Source of the DNA: a virus
DNA: 64,000 nucleotides
Virus record (IMG/VR): IMGVR_UViG_3300042874_000443
Span: 1 to 64,000 of that record
Strand: one strand, 5' to 3'
The translations under genes and the position numbers were made by a program. Shown piece by piece: positions 1-11,039 of this stretch (position 1 is the first letter of the stretch; the number at the start of each line of letters is the position of its first letter). Under the pieces are notes generated by a model. That model had not been told where the DNA came from. It ran no database searches and was given only the letters and a program-made list of their open reading frames with translations.

Positions 1-202
1 CCGATCCAACAGTGCCGCCTGTGACTGCCCCGCCGATCGACATCCCACCACCGCCCGCACCCAGCTGCAGGATCGTTCCGTCGCTCTTGCGTGCGAACAG
101 CTCCGAGACCCCAAGGACGAGCTTGGAGTACTGGACGATGGCATTCGCTACGGCCGGAGGGTCCGCCGTCGAGATCGCAACGATGTTCTTGTTTACGCCC
201 AT
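1..202 (-). CDS. Partial virion/tail-fibre-like protein (N-terminus; runs off window)
   Basis: Open frame MGVNKNIVAISTADPPAV...SELFARKSDGTILQLGAGGGG. Resembles the LFAYDSDNFLYQI segment of 14220..15632. TAAAAT lies 5 nt before the ATG. Confidence 0.55.
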   Translation of the reverse strand, partial: MGVNKNIVAISTADPPAVANAIVQYSKLVLGVSELFARKSDGTILQLGAGGGGMSIGGAVTGGTVGS

Positions 203-225
203 ACACAATTTTAGTGGAGAACCCT

Positions 226-438
226 GTGAAAGACCTCATTGAAGCCCTGACCATCCTCCTCAAGTACGGCAACCCGAGGAACCCGACGCACTGCGAGCAC
301 GACGTGTTGACCGTCTGTGGTATCGACCCCGAGAAGGTCGAAGCGGCGGACAAGAAGCGCCTCGACAAGCTCGGGTTCTTCGTGAGCGATGCAGACGGCG
401 ACCCGTGCTTTCAGTCGTTCCGTTTCGGGAGCGCGTGA
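226..438 (+). CDS. Hypothetical phage protein
   Basis: GGAGA RBS then GTG; MKDLIEALTILLKYGN...THCEHD. Confidence 0.7.
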   Translation: MKDLIEALTILLKYGNPRNPTHCEHDVLTVCGIDPEKVEAADKKRLDKLGFFVSDADGDPCFQSFRFGSA

Positions 439-758
439 TGGAACGCGAACCCAACATCTGGAAGGTCGTCCACAAGAAGGACGACGTCGAGACCGTCTAT
501 CTCGTGAGCGCGTTGTCGCAGCGTGATGCCGTCACGCAGGTGCTCGACGTGTTGTACGAGCGCAATTTCTTCCGCAAGGAAGACCCTGAGCGGCTCGCCA
601 ACGACCCGTTCGGCCTACTCGCCGCGGGTCAACATGGTTCGTGGACGAACACGAAGCTGATGAAGGACCACGGCATCTCGATGGGAGCTACGCTCTTCCA
701 GCCCGACCCGCCGTACAAGCTCTACACCCTCAACATGAAGACAGGAGCGATGACCTGA
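438..758 (+). CDS. Hypothetical protein
   Basis: TGATG coupling with the upstream gene. Confidence 0.65.
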   Translation: MEREPNIWKVVHKKDDVETVYLVSALSQRDAVTQVLDVLYERNFFRKEDPERLANDPFGLLAAGQHGSWTNTKLMKDHGISMGATLFQPDPPYKLYTLNMKTGAMT

Positions 759-1037
759 ATGAGGGTCGACCGTGTTGTGATGCACTCGTCGACGAGTGCA
801 ACGGTGTACTTGCAGCCCTCTTGGTGGGAGCGTTTGTTCGGTGCCAAGGTTCTCGTATGTGACATCGAACGGAAACGTGATGTCGACGAGGAGGGCGCGC
901 TCACGGGGCGCAGCAAACACACAGGGGAGAAGTTGGGTTGGATGCATTGGGGCTCGTTGATTCATCGAGCCCTGGAGTTTCAACCCGAGGCGTCTGAAGC
1001 CACGTCGTTGCCGGTGGCGAGGTCGTTGAAGCCATGA
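759..1037 (+). CDS. Hypothetical protein
   Basis: Operon-like spacing, AGGAG upstream. Confidence 0.65.
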   Translation: MRVDRVVMHSSTSATVYLQPSWWERLFGAKVLVCDIERKRDVDEEGALTGRSKHTGEKLGWMHWGSLIHRALEFQPEASEATSLPVARSLKP

Positions 1038-1363
1038 CGAAGCTCCTGCCCAAGCGAAACATCTGGGCAGTTCGTGACGATGCTGGCCTCGTGCACACTG
1101 CGTCGGTCACCCGCTTCGTCGACGGGAAAGACAACATCACCGCGTTGCACGTGTCGACGGGTTGTGTGGTTCGCGTCGCTCAGATGCGAAATTCGAATGG
1201 TGAGCCGTGGACACGTTTTCAGTTGCCCAGGGTACTCATCTACGCAGCATCTGAGAGCACCAACTACGAAGATGTCGCCGTTCCTCGCTTCACGATCGTC
1301 GAGTGGGATGTTCGCGCGACGCCGACGTGCTTCGGCTGCGTGATGGCGGAGCCGTTGTCATGA
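1034..1363 (+). CDS. H-C-CxxC Zn-finger family paralogue 1
   Basis: GLVH...GC...PTCFGC. Confidence 0.7.
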   Translation: MTKLLPKRNIWAVRDDAGLVHTASVTRFVDGKDNITALHVSTGCVVRVAQMRNSNGEPWTRFQLPRVLIYAASESTNYEDVAVPRFTIVEWDVRATPTCFGCVMAEPLS

Positions 1364-1845
1364 CGCAGCGCGTGTACGTCATCTATTACGAGCATCGGCA
1401 CGGAACGGACGTTTCGGCGTACGCAACACAACAGGCCGCAAACCGCGCACGCGCTGACCTCGTGATGGACAACCTCGTCAACGAAGTCACCGACGAGAAC
1501 ATCATCACCATCATCAAGCAGTGCTACATCGAGGGCGAGTTTGACCGTTGCTACGATCTCTACAAGGAGTGCGTGGAAGACGAGAACATTACCATCGAGG
1601 AGTGCCGGCTCAATGATGCTTCCGTCGAAGGACGGTTCGTCGTCGTTGATGTTGACAGCGAGCTTGCGCACGTGGTGGCTCTATGGCCATATGCAGGCGA
1701 ACATGGTCTCACGCTCTGCCAGAAACACTTCTGTTGGTGGCGGGAGGGGATGGAGCGCTTCGGCATTTGCCCGGCGTACCTACCACATGACGTCCGCACC
1801 GTGACGTGTCTGGAGTGCATCGCCGGTGAACAAGCGCCAACGTAA
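1360..1845 (+). CDS. H-C-CxxC family paralogue 2 (acidic N-terminal domain)
   Basis: ELAH...TLC...VTCLEC; ATGA overlap. Confidence 0.7.
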   Translation: MTQRVYVIYYEHRHGTDVSAYATQQAANRARADLVMDNLVNEVTDENIITIIKQCYIEGEFDRCYDLYKECVEDENITIEECRLNDASVEGRFVVVDVDSELAHVVALWPYAGEHGLTLCQKHFCWWREGMERFGICPAYLPHDVRTVTCLECIAGEQAPT

Positions 1846-2254
1846 GAAGCGGCTCAAGAAGATCACGAACTACATGTCCGGGTTCCTCCGGGACGCGCTG
1901 AAGCACAAGATCGGTGAACAGTTGAACGCCGCGCGAATGCTCGAAGTTCAGACCATCATCGGCGACACCATCAAGGCGAAGCTCGCGCAGCCGTCGTTCG
2001 TTCATCAGATCTTGGAACCTATGCCGACGTACACGGCGCCCTTTCGTATGTGGCGCGAGCTTGGCGCAGGTCAGCTCACCCATCACGTAGGTGTGTACCC
2101 GTACATCCGTGGCGATGGTTCCACCATCTGGAAGCGCCTCTGTGATGATGCGACCGTCGACGAAACCTTCATCTTGTCCAACGACGAAGCGGTCAACTGC
2201 TTCGGATGTCTCGCCAAGGAGGACATCATCTATGCCTCCAAGACTGATCTCTGA
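1826..2254 (+). CDS. H-C-CxxC family paralogue 3
   Basis: QLTH...RLC...VNCFGC; basic MNKRQRKK N-terminus. Confidence 0.7.
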   Translation: MNKRQRKKRLKKITNYMSGFLRDALKHKIGEQLNAARMLEVQTIIGDTIKAKLAQPSFVHQILEPMPTYTAPFRMWRELGAGQLTHHVGVYPYIRGDGSTIWKRLCDDATVDETFILSNDEAVNCFGCLAKEDIIYASKTDL

Positions 2255-2447
2255 TCGCTTCCTCGACCGGCGCACGGGCATCGTGCACCTCGGCGAGAAG
2301 AACGAACGCGACATGCGTTCGGAATGGCCGTGGTTCAAGTGCGGCCTGATGACGGGCTTCACCGAAGCGACCGAGCTACCGCTCACGTGTATGGGTTGTG
2401 CGGCCGACGTGTCGATGCACGACTGGATGAAGGGTCCCCACGAGTGA
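2232..2447 (+). CDS. H-C-CxxC family paralogue 4
   Basis: GIVH...KCG...LTCMGC. Confidence 0.7.
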   Translation: MPPRLISDRFLDRRTGIVHLGEKNERDMRSEWPWFKCGLMTGFTEATELPLTCMGCAADVSMHDWMKGPHE

Positions 2448-2647
2448 GTGAACAACACGTCGACTGGGCCGAGGTCAAGCTAGCCCGATACGGATATGTC
2501 ACTGGACACGATGGGTTACTCCATCGCGCCAAGCATGACGGTACCACTGCATGTGGTATGGGCCGGTCCCAGAATCCGACGTATCACGACGCGGGCCCTG
2601 CCACATGTCTCCGTTGCCTGGCAAGCAGACCGTGGGGTGATTTCTAG
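2444..2647 (+). CDS. H-C-CxxC family paralogue 5
   Basis: GLLH...ACG...ATCLRC. Confidence 0.7.
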   Translation: MSEQHVDWAEVKLARYGYVTGHDGLLHRAKHDGTTACGMGRSQNPTYHDAGPATCLRCLASRPWGDF

Positions 2648-2674
2648 GGCTCTGTTTATCGTATCAACGTAGCC

Positions 2675-2690
2675 CTTGACGGAGGTCAAG
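2675..2690. promoter_or_regulatory. Palindrome CTTGAC-ggag-GTCAAG upstream of HTH gene (possible operator)
   Basis: Perfect 6-bp inverted repeat containing TTGAC in an intergenic gap. Confidence 0.35.
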
Positions 2691-2710
2691 CACTATGACA
2701 AAAAAAGCGC

Positions 2711-2968
2711 ATGTCCAAGAACAACGGAAAGACTGCGAAGGCTCCGTACCCGTACGAGTCGTTCGTGAAGAACTGGCAGAAGAGCGCGAACATCGCGGAG
2801 GTCGTCGCTGCAACGGGCCTGTCGCGCAACACGGTGTCGGCGATGTCGACCCGCCTCCGCAAGGAGGGCGTCAAGCTCAAGATGATGCCGCGTCGTACAG
2901 CACGTCCGATCGACGTGAACGTGCTGAACAAGATCGCGAAGGACGCGGCTCCGTCGAAGAGCGCGTAG
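2711..2968 (+). CDS. Small basic HTH DNA-binding protein
   Basis: NIAEVVAATGLSRNTVSAMSTRLRKEG helix-turn-helix pattern. Confidence 0.65.
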   Translation: MSKNNGKTAKAPYPYESFVKNWQKSANIAEVVAATGLSRNTVSAMSTRLRKEGVKLKMMPRRTARPIDVNVLNKIAKDAAPSKSA

Positions 2969-2991
2969 AGCGCCTAGGGCACGTCAGCTAC

Positions 2992-3180
2992 GTGGGCGAC
3001 CACGTGTGCTTCGTACGAGATGAAGGCGGGGTCGTTCACATCGAACGGCCCCGTCATCATTTGCCCATCTGCCACGAGAACCGGCTCACCACAGGCTGGG
3101 ACGTCGTGTATCCCTGGCGCGACGCGTTCCCCACGTGCATGGAGTGCATCGTGATGGCGCCGGAGTACTACAACCTGTGA
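2992..3180 (+). CDS. H-C-CxxC family paralogue 6
   Basis: GVVH...PIC...PTCMEC. Confidence 0.65.
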   Translation: MGDHVCFVRDEGGVVHIERPRHHLPICHENRLTTGWDVVYPWRDAFPTCMECIVMAPEYYNL

Positions 3181-3359
3181 TCGTCGACTTCGACACCTAC
3201 CGTGTTGACGCGCGCGGGCTGGTTCACGGCGCGCATTACGGCAAAGGCTTCGACAGCAACATCTACCTGTGGTGCGGCCTCGAAGGCGGCAACGAGATGG
3301 ACCCCGCAGACGAGGACATGCTCACATGTTTGCTGTGCATCGGAAAGCGAGGTGAGTGA
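3177..3359 (+). CDS. H-C-CxxC family paralogue 7
   Basis: GLVH...WCG...LTCLLC. Confidence 0.7.
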   Translation: MIVDFDTYRVDARGLVHGAHYGKGFDSNIYLWCGLEGGNEMDPADEDMLTCLLCIGKRGE

Positions 3360-3928
3360 TGGGTGACATTGTTTGCTGTCCGCTTCAAGGCAACGACGGC
3401 GAGGGTCCCTCGTGCCACGCGCAGACGGTTCGCACTGCCCGTAAGGAGCACGTGTGCAGTGAGTGCGGTGAGACCATCACCAAAGGCACGAAGTACGATT
3501 ACTCGAGCGGTATCTGGGACGGTCGTGCCGAGTCGTACAAGACGTGCCTCCTGTGCGTCGAGATTCGCGATCACTTTGCGTGTGAGGGCTGGATCTACGA
3601 ACAGCTCTGGGGCGACCTGCAGGAGAACTTCTTCCCGGATATGAAGTGCGGCGGCCAATGCATGACCGGGCTGTCCCCCGATGCGAAGAGAAAGCTGATC
3701 GACGCTCGGATGGAATGGTATTTCGATCAGGACGAGATCAACGACGATGCGTGGGAGGACTGGCCCAAGAACAAGGACGTTCAACGCCCACGTTACGAGA
3801 AGCCTGTCGTCGAGGAGAAGGACGACTACTACAGCCTGCCCGAGGTCTACTGGCCGGAGCGCCTGAAGCAGGAAGAGATGATGCGGAAGTACTACGAGGA
3901 AGAGGAGAAGAAGAACAATGGCCGTTGA
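3359..3928 (+). CDS. Zn-binding phage protein (ARKEHxCxEC...YKTCxxC family)
   Basis: TARKEHVCSECGETI..GTKY..SGIWDG...KTCLLC, a widespread phage motif. Confidence 0.7.
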   Translation: MGDIVCCPLQGNDGEGPSCHAQTVRTARKEHVCSECGETITKGTKYDYSSGIWDGRAESYKTCLLCVEIRDHFACEGWIYEQLWGDLQENFFPDMKCGGQCMTGLSPDAKRKLIDARMEWYFDQDEINDDAWEDWPKNKDVQRPRYEKPVVEEKDDYYSLPEVYWPERLKQEEMMRKYYEEEEKKNNGR

Positions 3929-4196
3929 TCCAAACCATCAAGTCGTCGCCGTGCGTCCTGAGTACTGCAACGGCGCAGGTCCCGCACGCAAGCACACCGT
4001 GTTCGTGCGGCTCGGTGATGGCAGCGACGTGACGGCGGAAGACCTCATCGCGCTCATTGAGGCGGGCGCGGCCTACCACATGATTCCGCCCGAGGGCGCA
4101 CCGGCTTACGAGGCGCACCTTGCGTCTGGCGGACTCCCTCTTATCTTGCAGGTACGCGTGTGCGACCTGTGCTTCAAGAAGGTTCTGTTCGCATGA
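3918..4196 (+). CDS. Hypothetical protein
   Basis: Coupled ORF with C-terminal CxxC. Confidence 0.6.
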   Translation: MAVDPNHQVVAVRPEYCNGAGPARKHTVFVRLGDGSDVTAEDLIALIEAGAAYHMIPPEGAPAYEAHLASGGLPLILQVRVCDLCFKKVLFA

Positions 4197-4465
4197 AGAG
4201 CGTCGACTACGTCTTCGACCCGCCGCTGTTCCTCATCATCCTGGGTTCAGCTCTCACGTATCTCTGCATCGGCGGGTTCACGTGGGGACTGACACCAGAA
4301 CGCTGGAACAACCCCTACAACTTCCCGGCGAAGCACGTCACCAGCATTTTCTGGCCGGCGACGCTCGCGGGCTACATCATCTATCGCATCGCGACGTTCG
4401 GTCCTCGTCTCATCAAGACGCTGCGTGAACGCAACAAGATCCCTCGAGCGGAGATCCACCAATGA
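4193..4465 (+). CDS. Small membrane protein
   Basis: Two hydrophobic segments, FWP motif. Confidence 0.65.
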   Translation: MKSVDYVFDPPLFLIILGSALTYLCIGGFTWGLTPERWNNPYNFPAKHVTSIFWPATLAGYIIYRIATFGPRLIKTLRERNKIPRAEIHQ

Positions 4466-4809
4466 GCGATGACGTCGACGAGTACATCAAGAAGAACCGC
4501 CGACGCAACGCTCGTTGGAAGACGGTCGGCTCTGTCGCTTCCACGACGGGCATTCTCCTCTGCGTCGCCGCGTTCCTCTTCGTGCAGTGCAACGGTTGCA
4601 AGGTCGGCGACGACCGCGCGATCGAAGCCGTCGAAGCCGCGGGCATGAAGAACGTCAAGCTCGGCGGCATGGACGCGTGGGCGTGTGGTGAGAGCGAGGG
4701 CTCGCGTCACTTCACCGCAACGAACCCACTTGGTGCCCAGGTCGAGGGCACGGTGTGTTGCGGCCTTACCGGCTGCGGTAAGGGCTGCACGATCCGCTGG
4801 GGTCGATGA
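4462..4809 (+). CDS. Membrane-anchored Cys-rich phage protein
   Basis: TM helix then ACG..FTATNP.G..V.GTVCCG...KGCTIRW. Confidence 0.65.
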   Translation: MSDDVDEYIKKNRRRNARWKTVGSVASTTGILLCVAAFLFVQCNGCKVGDDRAIEAVEAAGMKNVKLGGMDAWACGESEGSRHFTATNPLGAQVEGTVCCGLTGCGKGCTIRWGR

Positions 4810-5336
4810 CCTGGTGGCTCGTACCTGCGGGCCTCCTCGCGGGCGGATTCCTCTGGTTGTTGTTGCGGCGGATGCTCTTCGAAGACGACATCGCGACGAA
4901 GCACGTCAAGGAAGCGCATGCCCGCGCAGCGTTCTCGATCACCTGTGCCGAGCGAGAGATTCTCGAGGAGGATCTCAAGCGACAGCCCTATCCGCCGCCC
5001 CCGATGAAACCCGGCGAGTCGCCGTGGGATTGGACGCGCCGAGCCGCGGACGCGGGCTACATCAAGCTCAAGCCCTGGGAGCCGCCGTGGGGGTACCTTC
5101 GTATGCGTGAAGAAACTAAGAACGGCGTCGACATCACAATCAGCGTCAAGCTCTGGACCACGAACATCGAAGGCGTCCTCCATCGCGTGGGGCGTCTCCC
5201 TGTCGTGAGTGGTTCGTCGACGCCGGTGCTGCTCTGCGATACAACCACACGCGTGACGACACCGATCGTCGAGTACGATCGGGAGCGTTGCCCTCTCATC
5301 ACGTGCCTTCGTTGCATCGTGAACATAAAGGACTAG
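4806..5336 (+). CDS. H-C-CxxC family paralogue 8 (N-terminal TM anchor)
   Basis: TM helix; GVLH...LLC...ITCLRC. Confidence 0.7.
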   Translation: MTWWLVPAGLLAGGFLWLLLRRMLFEDDIATKHVKEAHARAAFSITCAEREILEEDLKRQPYPPPPMKPGESPWDWTRRAADAGYIKLKPWEPPWGYLRMREETKNGVDITISVKLWTTNIEGVLHRVGRLPVVSGSSTPVLLCDTTTRVTTPIVEYDRERCPLITCLRCIVNIKD

Positions 5337-5630
5337 ATGACCGACGAGCAGAAAGGCGTCCAAGCGTGCATCGACATCGTCAAGCGACGTCAGCAGTACT
5401 ACGAAAGCTACCGCTGCAACTGCAATCGTATCGCCCAGCTCGATGGTCATGCCGTCGGTTGTCGCGCTGAGATGATGGAGACGAAGCCTGCGACGTTCGC
5501 CACGCTCGACGACATCCTCGTTCATCTCGAGGCGCACCTTGGGCGACTGCAGAATCCTGCGCCACCGCCACGCACGTCGGCGTGCGGCTGCATCAACGGC
5601 TGCAAGGCTTGGGACTGCCAGAACCTGTGA
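5337..5630 (+). CDS. Cys-rich hypothetical protein
   Basis: CNC...H..GC and CGC..GC..WDC. Confidence 0.6.
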   Translation: MTDEQKGVQACIDIVKRRQQYYESYRCNCNRIAQLDGHAVGCRAEMMETKPATFATLDDILVHLEAHLGRLQNPAPPPRTSACGCINGCKAWDCQNL

Positions 5631-5818
5631 ATTCGTCGCCTCGACGTGGTGACTGGACCGTCGTTGACGGCGCCGGCGTCGTTCACATCGTGAACTTTCC
5701 TGGACGCAGCGCCATGGCGTACAAGACTTGGTGCGGTCGTTCCTTCGGGAGCGACGAGATCCAGGCCGGCACTCGCATTCCTACGTGTCTCGAATGCATC
5801 TCCTGGGAGAACCGATGA
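5627..5818 (+). CDS. H-C-CxxC family paralogue 9
   Basis: GVVH...WCG...PTCLEC. Confidence 0.7.
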   Translation: MNSSPRRGDWTVVDGAGVVHIVNFPGRSAMAYKTWCGRSFGSDEIQAGTRIPTCLECISWENR

Positions 5819-6066
5819 GCGCAATCGAAGACAAGGCTGCCCAGTGGCAGCCACCACTTCTCCTGCCCTCCGCCTTCCGGTGGAGGGATATCGCCACGCA
5901 GCTCGTACATCACGGCGCCGTGGTTCAACGCAGTGACGGGCGTGTGCTGGGCTACACCATCCTCTGTACCGAAACACTCGGCTTCCAGTGGAAGGAGCCT
6001 CCCCCCGATGAGGACGCGATGATCAACTGCCTTCAGTGCTTGGGTGCACGGGAGCAAGACGAATGA
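5815..6066 (+). CDS. H-C-CxxC family paralogue 10
   Basis: QLVH...ILC...INCLQC. Confidence 0.7.
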   Translation: MSAIEDKAAQWQPPLLLPSAFRWRDIATQLVHHGAVVQRSDGRVLGYTILCTETLGFQWKEPPPDEDAMINCLQCLGAREQDE

Positions 6067-6593
6067 CTCGTCCCCTTGGACGTGATCGTTGGAGCTTCTT
6101 GCACAATGCTGACCATGGTGACCAGCTCATTCACAGTGTGCTTGCGATGTACGACCCAACGTACAAGCAGCGTGGCGAGATGATCGTGCCTGTTCTTGGC
6201 ATCACTGAGTGTGGCATCTACGTCAAGCTTTTGAATGACACCACAGCGGTTGCTGAGCAGGGCGTCTACCTGGACGACAAACACACGGTGACGTGTATGC
6301 GTTGTGCGTCTGGCGTCTGCCACGACGGTATCAGCTTTCGGCAGGCTCAGAAGGAAGCGTTGTTCGGCGAACGCTACGGGCGCAAGTCGTACAATCATCC
6401 TGTGCAATCGAGTGCCGCAATGATACGCGGACACCAAGCTCATCGTACGTTGATCGACGAGGTTCAGAACATCGACTACGCCACGCTCGAGAAGCAGTGC
6501 GCGGAAGTCTACAAGAGGCTCATGGAATCGTACAAGATCCCATCAGAGTGGTGGATGGCTGCAGCGCTGGCCAAGCTGCCCGACCCGGTATGA
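6063..6593 (+). CDS. H-C-CxxC family paralogue 11 (C-terminal extension)
   Basis: QLIH...ECG...VTCMRC. Confidence 0.7.
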   Translation: MTRPLGRDRWSFLHNADHGDQLIHSVLAMYDPTYKQRGEMIVPVLGITECGIYVKLLNDTTAVAEQGVYLDDKHTVTCMRCASGVCHDGISFRQAQKEALFGERYGRKSYNHPVQSSAAMIRGHQAHRTLIDEVQNIDYATLEKQCAEVYKRLMESYKIPSEWWMAAALAKLPDPV

Positions 6594-6838
6594 CGTTGTA
6601 CAGCCGTGAGAACATGTTGTGGCTCTGGCTCGATCCGCTACGAAAACTCAAGCACCATGTCGTCAAGATGGTCTATGGAACGCCGCAAGGCGTTGACGTC
6701 GTTGAGTACGAGACGTACTGCAAGCACGCCGTGACTGTCGACGATGTCAACCCCCAGACCAAGGTGACGGGAGAGCCAACGTGCCTGCGTTGTATCGTTG
6801 CTGTGCCTCTTGATGACGTGTTACCTACCGAGGAGTGA
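6590..6838 (+). CDS. H-C-CxxC family paralogue 12
   Basis: KLKH...TYC...PTCLRC. Confidence 0.7.
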   Translation: MTLYSRENMLWLWLDPLRKLKHHVVKMVYGTPQGVDVVEYETYCKHAVTVDDVNPQTKVTGEPTCLRCIVAVPLDDVLPTEE

Positions 6839-7047
6839 ACGCATGGAACAACGGCAAGCCCCTTGGCGTGCCCTTCTTCGGCAACAAGGGCAGCGCGCGG
6901 GAATTCGCCAAGAAGGGCGACAAGGCCAAGCGGCTCGCCATGATCAAACGGCGCCATCGCGTTTGGTTGCGTCAGCAGGCGGAGGACACCGTGCCGCTCG
7001 AGGACGAAAGCGCGGGTGGCGGTTCCGACGAGGTGTGGTTCGACTAG
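6835..7047 (+). CDS. Small basic hypothetical protein
   Basis: GTGA overlap, GAGGA RBS. Confidence 0.55.
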   Translation: MNAWNNGKPLGVPFFGNKGSAREFAKKGDKAKRLAMIKRRHRVWLRQQAEDTVPLEDESAGGGSDEVWFD

Positions 7048-7412
7048 AGCCCGCCGTCGAGGGCGCACACGGGGACCTCAACTACTGGGACGAGGTCTAC
7101 GACGACAGCCTGCATGACGAGGGAGCACACCACGCGGACTGTGAATACTGCGGCACGACGGGCGAATGGTGGGCGCCGACAATGCCGCCTCGTGCGTTTC
7201 TGCAAAACGGACTCGTCCACATGACGACGCTTTGGGATGGAACGCAGGCGTACTGTGGTGCACCCGCGGTGCCTTACGGCGTGACGCTCCACTCGACGGA
7301 CGCCGTGCACGCCTACGCGCGGCAACTTTCAGCGGAGGCGGGCGAGGTCACGTGCTTCGAGTGCATCGTGCGTGACTTTGATCTCGAGCCACGCGGGCGC
7401 TGGCGACGCTAA
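7035..7412 (+). CDS. H-C-CxxC family paralogue 13
   Basis: Extra CEYC; GLVH...YCG...VTCFEC. Confidence 0.7.
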   Translation: MVRLEPAVEGAHGDLNYWDEVYDDSLHDEGAHHADCEYCGTTGEWWAPTMPPRAFLQNGLVHMTTLWDGTQAYCGAPAVPYGVTLHSTDAVHAYARQLSAEAGEVTCFECIVRDFDLEPRGRWRR

Positions 7413-7427
7413 CAACAAGGAGGACCG

Positions 7428-7685
7428 ATGGCGGAAGAAGACGACCGCTGGGCTCTCGAGCATCTGAAGGATTGTGACGAACGAGAGAGTTCGTTCGGCG
7501 TCGGCACGTTTCGCTGGAAAGGCGAAGACGGGCTCGTGCACCGTGTGACGTGGTCACGCGGGACGCGTGGATGGTCGCGAGTGTGTGATGGTGTTGCGGT
7601 GGACCGCAAGGCGCTCAATGCGAAGGACCCGCACGACGACCCTGGCGCGGTGACGTGCTTCGCGTGCCTCGGCAATGGCGCCTGA
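7428..7685 (+). CDS. H-C-CxxC family paralogue 14
   Basis: AAGGAGG RBS; DGLVH...RVC...VTCFAC. Confidence 0.75.
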   Translation: MAEEDDRWALEHLKDCDERESSFGVGTFRWKGEDGLVHRVTWSRGTRGWSRVCDGVAVDRKALNAKDPHDDPGAVTCFACLGNGA

Positions 7686-7959
7686 AGCGTACACGCCTGG
7701 TTGGAAGGGTCCTGATGGGCTCGTCCACATCGCAGGCACGCACATTCGTTCGTGCGTGTTCGCCGAGTGCGGCATCGTCATCGCGACGGGTGCCAAGGAC
7801 GGACGGGACTGGCCGGAGTACGAGGTTTCGACCGATGTTCCGACGTGCTTGATGTGCATCGGAAGCGCGGTCGACTACTTGCCGTGGACCGCACATCAAG
7901 AGGTGGGCATCGGTGTCATCAACGTCAACGCGTTGTCGAAGCTCAACCTCAAGCTTTGA
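7675..7959 (+). CDS. H-C-CxxC family paralogue 15
   Basis: WKGPDGLVH...ECG...PTCLMC. Confidence 0.75.
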   Translation: MAPEAYTPGWKGPDGLVHIAGTHIRSCVFAECGIVIATGAKDGRDWPEYEVSTDVPTCLMCIGSAVDYLPWTAHQEVGIGVINVNALSKLNLKL

Positions 7960-8168
7960 TGTGGTATGTACCAGACATGCCTGCACCGATTGTCCCGGCC
8001 ACGATGGCAACCAGTCAGATCGTTCAGCTTCTCGACTGGTCCAAGTTGAAGAACTATATGTACCCTCCGTCGGCGGAGCCGTACCCAACAGACCTGCGGA
8101 TGATCGTCGACGCGATGATGGCGCAGCTTTGTACCGAGCTGGACCGTCGCGTTCCGATTCCGGCCTAG
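7959..8168 (+). CDS. Hypothetical protein
   Basis: TGATG coupling; last gene of the array. Confidence 0.55.
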   Translation: MWYVPDMPAPIVPATMATSQIVQLLDWSKLKNYMYPPSAEPYPTDLRMIVDAMMAQLCTELDRRVPIPA

Positions 8169-8692
8169 CTCTGGCTGCGCTTCGCTCGTTCTTTTTTGAT
8201 CCAACGAGCGCGGTGCAAGCGGACTTCGGGGATCGTGCAGATGTCGACATCGCGGCTACCGCGCACGCGCATGACAGGACCTTCGGCGCAGGCGTTGATC
8301 AACGTGTAGCCGCCGCCGTAGCCGAGTAGGGCGCAGCGCTCATCGCCTCGGCACGCGCGATACCAGTCCTGCAGGTGCTTGGCACCGATGAGGTAGCCCT
8401 CGAACAACGTCTGCGGCACGCACTTCGTTTCCATGATCGGCTGCATTACGCCGCATGCGGTCTTGCCCCTGACCACTGGGCCCACCACGTCGGTCTTGTA
8501 GCGGCTCTCGAAGAACGCAGTGCTGAGCAGTAGATCGGCATCGACTTCGTAGATGGCTGCCGACACGCGTGCGGCCATCAGGTTCTCCATCGCAGTCTCC
8601 GCGGTCAGGTATCGAGGCGCTGTTCGTTGCAGTGCCTCGGCCTCGTCCGATGTTGTGAACAGCGACAGGAACACCGTGATGATGTACGACAT
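8165..8692 (-). CDS. Lytic transglycosylase (SLT domain) with N-terminal signal/anchor
   Basis: LLSTAFFESRY catalytic Glu, CGVMQ, GAKHL and ALLGY motifs. Confidence 0.75.
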   Translation of the reverse strand: MSYIITVFLSLFTTSDEAEALQRTAPRYLTAETAMENLMAARVSAAIYEVDADLLLSTAFFESRYKTDVVGPVVRGKTACGVMQPIMETKCVPQTLFEGYLIGAKHLQDWYRACRGDERCALLGYGGGYTLINACAEGPVMRVRGSRDVDICTIPEVRLHRARWIKKERAKRSQS

Positions 8693-8711
8693 GCGGCGGA
8701 CCCTAACATGA

Positions 8712-9020
8712 TCACGTACTGGATGGCGGATGTGATGGTCCGGGCCGATCCCAGTCATCAAGCACGATGAACTGGTGAAATGCGCACGGTGGAAAAGGAC
8801 ATACATCGCTAGGTGTTACGATGCCGCCTTTGACCACGGTGTGATTGCTACCGAGTAGAGCAACCTTGCCGCATGTTGGGCAACACAGCTCTGCCCAGTA
8901 GGTGTTTGGGCGTCCGTTGCTGGCGCAGTGCGTAGCCCAGAATTCCAAGACACGTCGATAGGTTCCTGGGAGATGTGGATAGACCTGCTCGTTCGCGATC
9001 CGCTTGAAGCGGTACGTCAT
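8712..9020 (-). CDS. DUF6527-like Zn-binding protein
   Basis: CPTC...VTPSDVC...CAFHQFI. Confidence 0.5.
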   Translation of the reverse strand: MTYRFKRIANEQVYPHLPGTYRRVLEFWATHCASNGRPNTYWAELCCPTCGKVALLGSNHTVVKGGIVTPSDVCPFPPCAFHQFIVLDDWDRPGPSHPPSST

Positions 9021-9460
9021 CGCTTGGGGGCGTACTGCATCGCCGCATCAGGGAGATCGTGCGGCAGCTCTTTGAACTTGGGACCTACAGGCGGTTTGAG
9101 CAGCGCGGGTTTGTCGCCCGTCGCGACCACAGGCAGTCGTGCTCCGCCTCCGACAGGCCGCGATGCGATGCGGTTGAGCGCGTCGAGCGTGTACTTGTCC
9201 ATCGCAGCGAGATTCGCTTCGAGCTTGATGATGAACTCGTGTTGCGCCACGACCTGCGTTTGCAGCTCTTTCACGGATACGGCGAGTGCGGCGTAGCCTG
9301 CGGTCGCGTCGTCCTGGCTCTTCTGGTACTTTGCTTTGATCTGGTCTCGGTTCTCGAGATACGTGAACAACGCGGGCATGATGGCGACGATGACGCCGGC
9401 CACAACCGCTGCGAGGGTCTTGGTCTTCGGTCGTGACTTCTTTTCAGTGGTCTCCGTCAT
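9017..9460 (-). CDS. Membrane-anchored coiled-coil protein (possible lysis accessory)
   Basis: One TM helix plus heptad region, co-transcribed with the SLT gene. Confidence 0.55.
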   Translation of the reverse strand: MTETTEKKSRPKTKTLAAVVAGVIVAIMPALFTYLENRDQIKAKYQKSQDDATAGYAALAVSVKELQTQVVAQHEFIIKLEANLAAMDKYTLDALNRIASRPVGGGARLPVVATGDKPALLKPPVGPKFKELPHDLPDAAMQYAPKR

Positions 9461-9479
9461 GGTGTAATGATAGGCGGAT

Positions 9480-9518
9480 TTTTTTGGCCCCGACGCAAGT
9501 TACCGAACCGACTATAAT
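9480..9518. promoter_or_regulatory. Divergent promoter region with TTTTTGGCCCC motif and TATAAT
   Basis: TATAAT at 9513-9518 is 6 nt before GTG 9525; minus-strand TATCAT (9467-9472) is 6 nt before ATG 9460. Confidence 0.6.
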
Positions 9519-9524
9519 TTCCCC

Positions 9525-11039
9525 GTGAAGCCCCTCTCGTTCGCGCAGGTGTTGGATGGTCTCCTCCTGAGGGAGAAGACCGCCGAAATCTCGACGAGCC
9601 CACGCACGTTTTTCGTGCACGTACGGGTCCCGGACCATGTCGTGGAGGACCTTCGCGCGGTCCAGAAGCGGGTCATCCCGGACGAGTCGAAACACCAGGA
9701 CATCGACCACGTTACGTTGGTCTACACGAAGAAGCCCCTCGAAGACCATCCACCGGACAAGGTCTACGCTGCGCTCGAAGCACTGCGTCAGGTCGGCGAG
9801 AAGACCGAGCCCATCAACGCCAAGATCCAAGGCTGGGGCTACTTCGATGGCGCGTCGAAGGACGGCAAGACGACGACCGCGCTGGTCGCGCTGCTCGATG
9901 CACCTGGTCTCGAGCACCTGCACGTCGACATGTCCCGCGCGCTCAAGGACCTCGGCGTCACGCCGAGCGACAACCACGTGTTCACGCCGCACATCACGCT
10001 CGGCTACCTCGGCGAACACGGACGCGTGGACACGCTGCCGAAGCTCAGCGGCAACTTCACGATCGACAAGGCGCACGTCGCGTCGCGCGATCATCACGAG
10101 GTTCCGTTGAAGGGCACGGCATCGTCGATGGGGCAGAAGGCTGCCTCGTTCGCCGTCAAGGGCGCAGCGCGCGCGGGCATGCGCCAGATCCAGCAACACA
10201 TCGGTGCAGGCAACCTCGGTGCAGCGAATCGGCTCGCGACGACACCAGGCGTGCTCAAGCCTTCGGCCGCGGGCAGTCAGTTGCGCCACCTTGGGAGCGG
10301 GTCGGAAGGTACGGCAACGCTCGTCGCGCATCCCGAACACGGCGTCGCTGTGCGAAAAGTGTTCGACCCCCAAGGGTCAGCCGGACCTCTGATGGTCGCG
10401 AACAAGGCGCACATGGGACGTGCGTTGCAAGATCATCCGAACGTTGCACGTTTTTTGGGCGAGACGCCGACGCAGATTGGGCCCGCGCACTTCAGTGAGT
10501 ACGTGCACGGCACGCCAACGGCGAAAGCGCCGTCACCACTAACGAGCCTTGGCGGCGAGCCTCCCCTAGGAAAGGATACCGCGTCCGCAGCCGCCTCCGT
10601 CCGTGCAGCAGGTCCTCCGCACGGGATGGACCTGATTGATGTCGGTGAGCACAACATGATCACGACGCCGGGCAGCCAGCACAAGGTCATCGACTACATG
10701 CCCATTCCGAAGAAAGGCCCACACGGGGGACGGATGGATGTGGTTGACCGCGGCGCTGCTGCCGAAGCGGCGAATCGTCTTGGCGTCAATCACGCGCTCA
10801 CGAACTACCTCAAGGACCCAGCACGTCCAGGCAATCTGATGGCGCAGGCGTTCCGCGGGGCGCAGCCGCTCGTGCAGGAGCACAGTCCTCCGGCGAACCC
10901 GAAGTGGGCCTCGCTCGGCGAGGAAGCTGCTGCCTTCGCGATGAATCCGCGTGACGTGCAAGAGCAGCATCGCGGTTCTCCCGGCAAAGGCACGACGACG
11001 CCATCGATCGGTGGCGTTCCGCTTCAAGGGAGTCGTTGA
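9525..11039 (+). CDS. 2H phosphoesterase (Acb1/2'-5' RNA ligase-like) fused to a protein-kinase-like domain
   Basis: HVTLVY and HITLGY 2H motifs; LGSGSEG, VAVRK, HPNV, EY, DVGEHN, KVIDY kinase motifs. Confidence 0.75.
   Translation: MKPLSFAQVLDGLLLREKTAEISTSPRTFFVHVRVPDHVVEDLRAVQKRVIPDESKHQDIDHVTLVYTKKPLEDHPPDKVYAALEALRQVGEKTEPINAKIQGWGYFDGASKDGKTTTALVALLDAPGLEHLHVDMSRALKDLGVTPSDNHVFTPHITLGYLGEHGRVDTLPKLSGNFTIDKAHVASRDHHEVPLKGTASSMGQKAASFAVKGAARAGMRQIQQHIGAGNLGAANRLATTPGVLKPSAAGSQLRHLGSGSEGTATLVAHPEHGVAVRKVFDPQGSAGPLMVANKAHMGRALQDHPNVARFLGETPTQIGPAHFSEYVHGTPTAKAPSPLTSLGGEPPLGKDTASAAASVRAAGPPHGMDLIDVGEHNMITTPGSQHKVIDYMPIPKKGPHGGRMDVVDRGAAAEAANRLGVNHALTNYLKDPARPGNLMAQAFRGAQPLVQEHSPPANPKWASLGEEAAAFAMNPRDVQEQHRGSPGKGTTTPSIGGVPLQGSR

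Follow-up and report, generated by a model that had tools for sequence, protein, structure and literature searches.

Large lytic phages carry blocks of host-takeover genes, such as the terminal-redundancy module of SPO1 and the early small genes of T4, and the proteins encoded there are, as far as we know, mostly unrelated to one another. Poxviruses and giant viruses, which infect eukaryotes, carry multigene families of ankyrin, BTB, F-box, and Bcl-2-like proteins, built of larger repeat or helical domains. To our knowledge, an expansion of one domain to 30 to 55 copies, occupying a quarter of the genome, is undescribed for tailed phages. Among single metal sites, the zinc subdomain of T4 gp32 has the ligands His64, Cys77, Cys87, and Cys90 and is part of a large protein with an OB fold. 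In the treble clef, the last two ligands lie at the N terminus of a helix, according to the definition quoted in bioRxiv 10.64898/2026.04.01.715805; the same paper, the only one mentioning zf-HC3 (PF16827) that our literature search found, gives no function for that domain and lists only an archaeal remote homologue. The subject of this analysis is an array of small genes at positions 1034 to 7959 (+ strand) of a 64,000-nucleotide stretch of viral DNA (the window), which is the first 64 kb of the 157,408-bp IMG/VR virus contig IMGVR_UViG_3300042874_000443 (61% G+C; CheckV completeness, 84%). Fifteen genes of the array encode a common module, in which GxVH is followed by a Cys and then by (T/N)CxxC, and these genes are true members of a larger, unannotated family of His-Cys3 mini-proteins of about 50 residues.

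A shared module in the array and its relatives

Our own gene calls placed 24 tightly packed + strand genes at 438 to 8168, among them the 15 module-bearing genes that a sequence-only reading of this DNA had singled out (numbered here g1 to g15). That reading had described a tandem array. The genes are indeed clustered within 7 kb, but they are not contiguous, with nine nonmembers interspersed among them (a helix-turn-helix [HTH] protein, a Cys-rich 190-residue protein, a transmembrane [TM] protein, and others), and the family reaches far beyond these coordinates. The translational coupling proposed for the array fits the layout, as 13 of the 24 gene junctions are 4-nucleotide ATGA/GTGA overlaps and a single gap, at 2648 to 2710, exceeds 25 nucleotides.

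In the six-frame translation of the window, the motif [TNI]C[LFMI]xC occurred 16 times, every time within 1325 to 7843 of the + strand. A search for the complete pattern H..C..[TN]C[LFMI]xC inside a single open frame likewise gave 16 matches, versus a mean of 0.3 and a maximum of 2 in 100 codon shuffles. The sixteenth match, in the gene at 3356 to 3928, was rejected as a family member by the hidden Markov model (HMM) (E value, 0.33). A profile (A3) built almost wholly from the proteins of other genomes retrieved all 15 members.

When the 15 proteins were aligned with MAFFT (A1), the invariant columns were exactly four, H, C, C, and C, at a mean column identity of 14%. The same residues were the sole invariant ones in the 132-homologue alignment (A3) and were invariant likewise in alignment A4, while a conserved stretch of 7 to 10 columns was absent from alignments A2 and A3. 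The spacing of the ligands varied from 9 to 25 residues between the His and the second ligand and from 15 to 54 residues between the latter and CxxC. Beyond the ligands, the copies shared few residues, all of the core (an aromatic one, G/hydrophobic-hydrophobic-H, and T before CxxC). Most copies on this contig consist of the module alone (50 to 75 residues); in nearly every copy, the module lies at the C terminus, CxxC being followed by a median of 8 residues. The N-terminal appendages read from the translations include a TM anchor (gene at 4806), a basic region (1826), and acidic regions (7035 and 7428). The invariant ligands, variable loops, and differing appendages are thus as the sequence-only reading had them, and its statement that no DNA-level repeat is apparent holds apart from stretches of 23 to 28 nucleotides, 68 to 87% similar, over the VTCxECI codons. 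Since DNA repeats are limited to these stretches, the copies must be old.

Searches of Pfam, PHROGs, and NCBIfam with the 15 and the 132 members gave scattered chance-level matches only. The family phrog_15583, matched by one homologue, had no match anywhere in this genome. A PDB sequence profile search returned nothing below an E value of 0.1, Foldseek searches of PDB and BFVD, and also VIA-align wide, returned nothing significant, and our literature search found nothing relevant to the family. The HMM comparison that had been suggested therefore brought up no characterized family with a mundane function in Pfam, PHROGs, NCBIfam, or PDB.

AlphaFold2 run on a 32-paralogue alignment predicted a small beta-sheet domain with a C-terminal helix (predicted local distance difference test [pLDDT], 87; predicted template modeling score [pTM], 0.71). 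In this model, the strands span residues 2 to 4, 10 to 14 (with the His), and 23 to 25 (just before the second ligand), and the helix, 46 to 51, starts at the CxxC pair (C45 and C48). The second model, made solely from the copies on a contig of a different lineage (L012, Logan SRR22000234), had a pLDDT of 73, a helix at 48 to 53, and the pair at C47 and C50, and the order of its elements was broadly similar, with the His in a strand, the second ligand after the next strand, and the helix running from CxxC. Two independent alignments therefore gave one predicted fold, in keeping with the common fold for which a test had been suggested. A structural metal site in the module is very likely, because one His and three Cys are invariant at a background column identity of 9 to 26%, because of their positions in the models, and because CxxC caps the helix.

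On the whole contig we counted 33 copies (34 profile matches), of which 15 are in the window and about 14 at 150.8 to 154.5 kb; the rest are single, at 92.8, 99.7, 141.7, and 145.6 kb. The second ligand Cys was absent from one of the 32 genome copies aligned. This copy, at 99,674 to 99,844 (L002 7677-7808), has H...VTCLWC only; it could be in decay or could rely on a different ligand. A complete relative, IMGVR_UViG_3300015607_004925 (G406; 184,915 bp; terminase 81% identical), carries 53 to 55 copies, and all but 2 or 3 of them lie in one run of about 44 kb that starts at 149.7 kb, crosses the junction, and ends at 8.3 kb. We treat this genome as a closed circular assembly because its ends share merely a 22-nucleotide assembly overlap, and a true direct terminal repeat was rejected on the same ground. 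Given the continuous run in the complete relative, the window array and the array at 150.8 to 154.5 kb are opposite ends of a single block that the contig break has split, and about 28 kb of the block is missing from the contig. The contig end itself (157,371 to 157,408) reads TTGGTAGGATAAACATG, bearing the motif GATAAACAT, and a gene begins where the sequence breaks off. For the contig, only distant matches were obtained, with a tail sheath, baseplate hub, and head protease; the nearest cultured relatives are Salmonella phage Arash and some Vibrio phages, to whose terminases that of the contig is 30% identical.

An exhaustive profile search over 1.84 billion representative proteins (cutoff, E ≤ 0.001) retrieved about 179 metagenomic clusters. 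Among the 150 clusters listed, the proteins were 52 to 274 residues long, mostly 52 to 100, and were matched over nearly the whole profile; no longer fused forms of the module scored, which is weak evidence. The homologues always stood in runs of tiny genes. Per 20-kb locus there were 16 copies in L003 and 20 in L007, which are mutually syntenic, and 25 in L011, an NCBI metagenome-assembled contig. L012 carries about 33 copies in 10.5 kb, as consecutive genes of 58 to 75 codons that nearly all encode the variant xLxHR...W-T-x-C...VTCLECLA and are packed more densely than those of the window array. The L012 and contig profiles are homologous (hhalign, 97.4%; E = 1e-11), and since the L012 copies mostly match one another best, they appear to represent a separate expansion. 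The family profile had no match in 401 sampled Actinomycetota genomes or in Salmonella phage Arash and Vibrio phage D69. Nor did the INPHARED set of 50,697 phage records yield a match, either to positions 1000 to 8000 by blastn or by tblastn to a 579-residue structural protein, a 63-residue member, and P0001. An actinobacterial origin, considered on account of the taxa in the ESM Atlas, was unsupported by the Actinomycetota genome searches. On the strength of these sequence searches, the family appears so far restricted to uncultured large phages.

The window copies have positional (syntenic) orthologues in L003 and L007 at 37 to 88% identity, and close relatives have gained or lost copies, with g7 and g8 missing from L003 and g5, g6, g7, g10, and g13 missing from L007. 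Orthologue identity was 71% in the ligand-proximal scaffold (nonsynonymous differences per site [pN], 0.19; synonymous differences per site [pS], 0.61), 48% in the loops (pN, 0.35; pS, 0.69; pN/pS about 0.5), and 57% in the appendages (pN, 0.28; pS, 0.63), figures that are rough because the synonymous sites are saturated. By these estimates, all parts are under purifying selection, with the loops changing about twice as fast as the scaffold. For 29 of 31 modules, the best match was an orthologue from a related phage and not one of the paralogues of the same genome. This pattern bears out the proposal of an old, diversified paralogous family and points to a vertically inherited repertoire, in which each copy is kept for itself, rather than to a hypervariable cassette system. 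The idea of a scaffold with variable loops accordingly stands for differences between paralogues but not in the sense of hypervariability, the loops being conserved between orthologues.

Possible roles of the mini-proteins

We favor the reading that the family is a specialized repertoire of zinc mini-binders and put its probability at about 0.45. The 15 genes stand at one end of a large block of small, closely spaced, same-direction nonstructural genes, and the phage is an uncultured myovirus with a genome of about 185 kb. Most genes of the block encode the module of about 50 residues, in which one His and three Cys very probably hold a structural zinc. The metal would tie the tiny beta-sheet domain to the C-terminal helix, with the His in the second strand, the second ligand after the third, and CxxC capping the helix. 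Such a site could let a minimal scaffold tolerate nearly any loop or surface sequence, and this tolerance of varied surfaces is presumably what allows more than 50 mini-proteins to be kept. Each would bind a target of its own and would be made from the nonstructural strand before or alongside the replication genes. Host proteins or defense systems are the likeliest targets, judging from the size, position, and turnover of the genes. Many binding specificities are favored because most copies consist of the module only, share few residues, and spread widely in pI, and because their genes are coupled, variable, and on the nonstructural strand. The copies are also accessory in character, being present or absent between close relatives, and no related gene was found in the 401 bacterial genomes sampled. 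A bolder version, which we regard as possible but doubtful, is that the lineage keeps a built-in library of over 50 mini-binders stapled by zinc, with a fold that has no solved structure, each tuned to a different host or defense target, and that a second lineage expanded the module independently.

Several points weigh against the favored reading. That the metal is zinc is very probably true, yet it is predicted from the invariance of the ligands and from a metal-free model. Binding to nucleic acids is common among small zinc domains, and a basic charge is seen in several copies. The selection figures carry the roughness noted above. As for the timing of expression, no sigma-70-like promoter was found at 1 to 9600 of the window, and none of the promoter-like motifs of this genome was found inside the window array.

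If the modules were nucleic-acid-binding zinc fingers, acting as small DNA or RNA regulators or as proteins that coat or mark nucleic acids, then the basic cores (pI above 8 in 9 of 32) and the HTH gene within the array would find a ready explanation. Core pI, however, ranged widely (4.3 to 10.5; median, 6 to 6.7), about half of the cores were acidic, no basic patch was conserved, and the structural matches were all below any meaningful threshold, so that we consider this role unlikely. We think still less of a common docking or targeting tag that carries N-terminal cargo to a single machine of the phage or the host (one serving packaging, injection, or recruitment, for example), an option already raised by the sequence-only reading. 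It would account for the nearly constant C-terminal position of the module and for the unrelated N-terminal parts of some copies (a TM helix, a basic helix, and a 100-residue domain that also stands alone in phages), but most copies, including nearly all of the approximately 33 in L012, are without cargo, and the genes are on the nonstructural strand. Moreover, nothing is conserved among the paralogues outside the ligands and core residues, neither a surface position nor, consequently, a shared docking surface. Least credible, in our view, is a metal or thiol role, such as sequestering zinc or buffering the redox state during infection, in which copy number would outweigh sequence. The very high copy number and the fact that the four metal-ligand residues are the sole invariant positions agree with it, but a dosage effect predicts homogenized or freely drifting copies, whereas each copy is a distinct orthologue with conserved loops and recent DNA-level duplicates are absent.

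The expansion points to a selection pressure, strong and long-lasting, that favored numerous variants of one tiny scaffold. Should the copies be binders, they would amount to a catalogue of host vulnerabilities and defense targets and to a practical metal-stabilized scaffold of 50 residues. If the library version is true, bacteriophages would have in this family their own equivalent of the multigene families by which poxviruses and giant viruses evade immunity, and evolution would have supplied a minimal scaffold for binders. If the copies are not binders, the family would nonetheless represent a zinc-binding domain that is new, and its presence would mark an uncultured clade of large myoviruses. 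In either case, about 179 metagenomic clusters are currently "hypothetical," because Pfam, PHROGs, and NCBIfam do not annotate the module, no solved structure is clearly related to it, and cultured phages yielded no homologue.

Gene order in the window array

All the genes of the array described here are on the + strand. The first member, g1 (1034..1363; 109 residues), has the longest loop of the 15, with 54 residues from the second ligand to CxxC, and orthologues in L003 and L007. It is followed by g2 (1360..1845; 161 residues), in which an N-terminal domain of about 100 residues precedes the C-terminal module and which has a 71% identical orthologue (P0049/L007). The N-terminal 98 residues of g2 (1360 to 1650) resemble stand-alone phage proteins of 87 to 92 residues in the ESM Atlas (TM-score, 0.68 to 0.75), and owing to this likeness we view g2 as the module fused to another small phage domain. 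The product of g3 (1826..2254; 142 residues) has a basic helical N terminus before the module (NCFGC). The next two members encode the module only, namely, g4 (2232..2447; 71 residues; 88% identical orthologue in L007) and g5 (2444..2647; 67 residues).

The sole sizeable intergenic gap, at 2648..2710, is a candidate regulatory site, in which GTTTATCG is followed by the palindrome CTTGAC-GGAG-GTCAAG, an arrangement kept in related phages. The region from 2640 to 2710 contains TTTCTAGGGCTCTGTTTATCG, followed by this palindrome, and directly precedes the HTH gene; L003 and L007 have kept it, and the element could serve as an operator or promoter or form an RNA hairpin. A similar TTCTTTAGGGTTC...CTGTTATC was seen at 141,395 to 141,430 of the genome (L001 1395-1430), before the dispersed copy at 141.5 kb. 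The HTH-like nonmember itself (2711..2968; 85 residues) gave weak Pfam HTH matches and has 80% identical orthologues. The possibility that the ATG at 2695 belongs to the HTH frame and is cut off from it by a frameshift or a homopolymer error was rejected, as relatives show the same 16-nucleotide offset with a different A-run.

Farther downstream are g6 (2992..3180; 62 residues), whose start is uncertain, and g7 (3177..3359; 60 residues), which is module only and has a near-identical homologue, P0002. The Cys-rich nonmember (3356..3928; 190 residues) contains CxxC-x28-CxxC and further Cys residues and fits the regular expression but not the family profile; it is 79% identical in L003 and gave only a weak TFIIB zinc-ribbon match. 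Three small nonmembers occupy 3918..4809, at 3918 to 4196, 4193 to 4465 (a predicted membrane protein), and 4462 to 4809. The product of g8 (4806..5336; 176 residues) combines an N-terminal TM helix with a C-terminal module and is separated by a 97-residue nonmember (5337..5630) from the module-only g9 (5627..5818; 63 residues), which is the copy that was modeled. Three members then follow in direct succession, g10 (5815..6066; 83 residues; NCLQC), g11 (6063..6593; 176 residues), in which an N-terminal module is followed by a C-terminal extension of 95 residues, and g12 (6590..6838; 82 residues). Beyond a 70-residue nonmember (6835..7047), the array closes with g13 (7035..7412; 125 residues; start uncertain) and g14 (7428..7685; 85 residues; orthologues P0028 and P0157), both with an acidic N terminus, and with g15 (7675..7959; 94 residues; orthologue P0076), which has a C-terminal tail of 30 residues. 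On the - strand after the array, at 8165 to 8806, there is a gene for a 213-residue protein with a lytic-transglycosylase-like motif (ES...GVMQ). A lysin of this kind, together with the nearest cultured terminases being those of Salmonella and Vibrio phages, hints at a Gram-negative host.

Comparison with described domains and gene blocks

Of the domains mentioned at the outset, zf-HC3 shares with the module the same set of ligands, one His and three Cys. Its 25-bit gathering cutoff was reached by none of the 15 window copies and none of the 33 genome copies; the best score, 20.5 bits, came from one G406 copy (model positions 9 to 62 of 67), and 2 of the 132 homologues reached an E value of 0.002. 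The top structural neighbor in the ESM Atlas was a cluster of 78-residue proteins (TM-score by query, 0.82; root mean square deviation, 1.9 over 52 residues), both sides of the comparison being predicted models. PF16827 is carried by 23% of the members of that cluster, which was also the nearest Pfam-bearing one by language-model features. In 301 Actinomycetota genomes, zf-HC3 was not found above the cutoff. On these results, the family probably belongs to the zf-HC3 superfamily as a distant branch, though by the Pfam rule it is not a member.

Two other zinc-binding motifs were tried and rejected: the zinc ribbon needs two CxxC knuckles, while the module has one CxxC, and in the ZAS anti-sigma motif (HxxxCxxC) the His stands three residues before CxxC, while in the module it precedes CxxC by 27 to 77 residues. 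The module resembles a treble clef in that its CxxC pair is at the N terminus of an alpha helix in both models. It differs in lacking the first CxxC knuckle, in place of which there is a His in strand 2 and then, 9 to 25 residues later and past another strand, a Cys. With T4 gp32 it shares the order and kind of the ligands, H-x(n)-C-x(n)-C-x2-C, but no match to gp32 in sequence or fold turned up in any PDB, BFVD, or sequence search.

As a gene block, the array resembles the takeover regions of SPO1 and T4, which also are long same-direction runs of packed small nonstructural genes that vary among relatives. Unlike in those regions, one module here accounts for 15 of the 24 genes of the window block and for more than 50 genes in the complete relative. 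The family also resembles the multigene families of poxviruses and giant viruses, in which one scaffold likewise occurs in tens of diverged copies that are clustered and are gained or lost among relatives; the difference is that here the scaffold is a domain of 50 residues, presumably stapled by a metal, and the virus is a bacteriophage.

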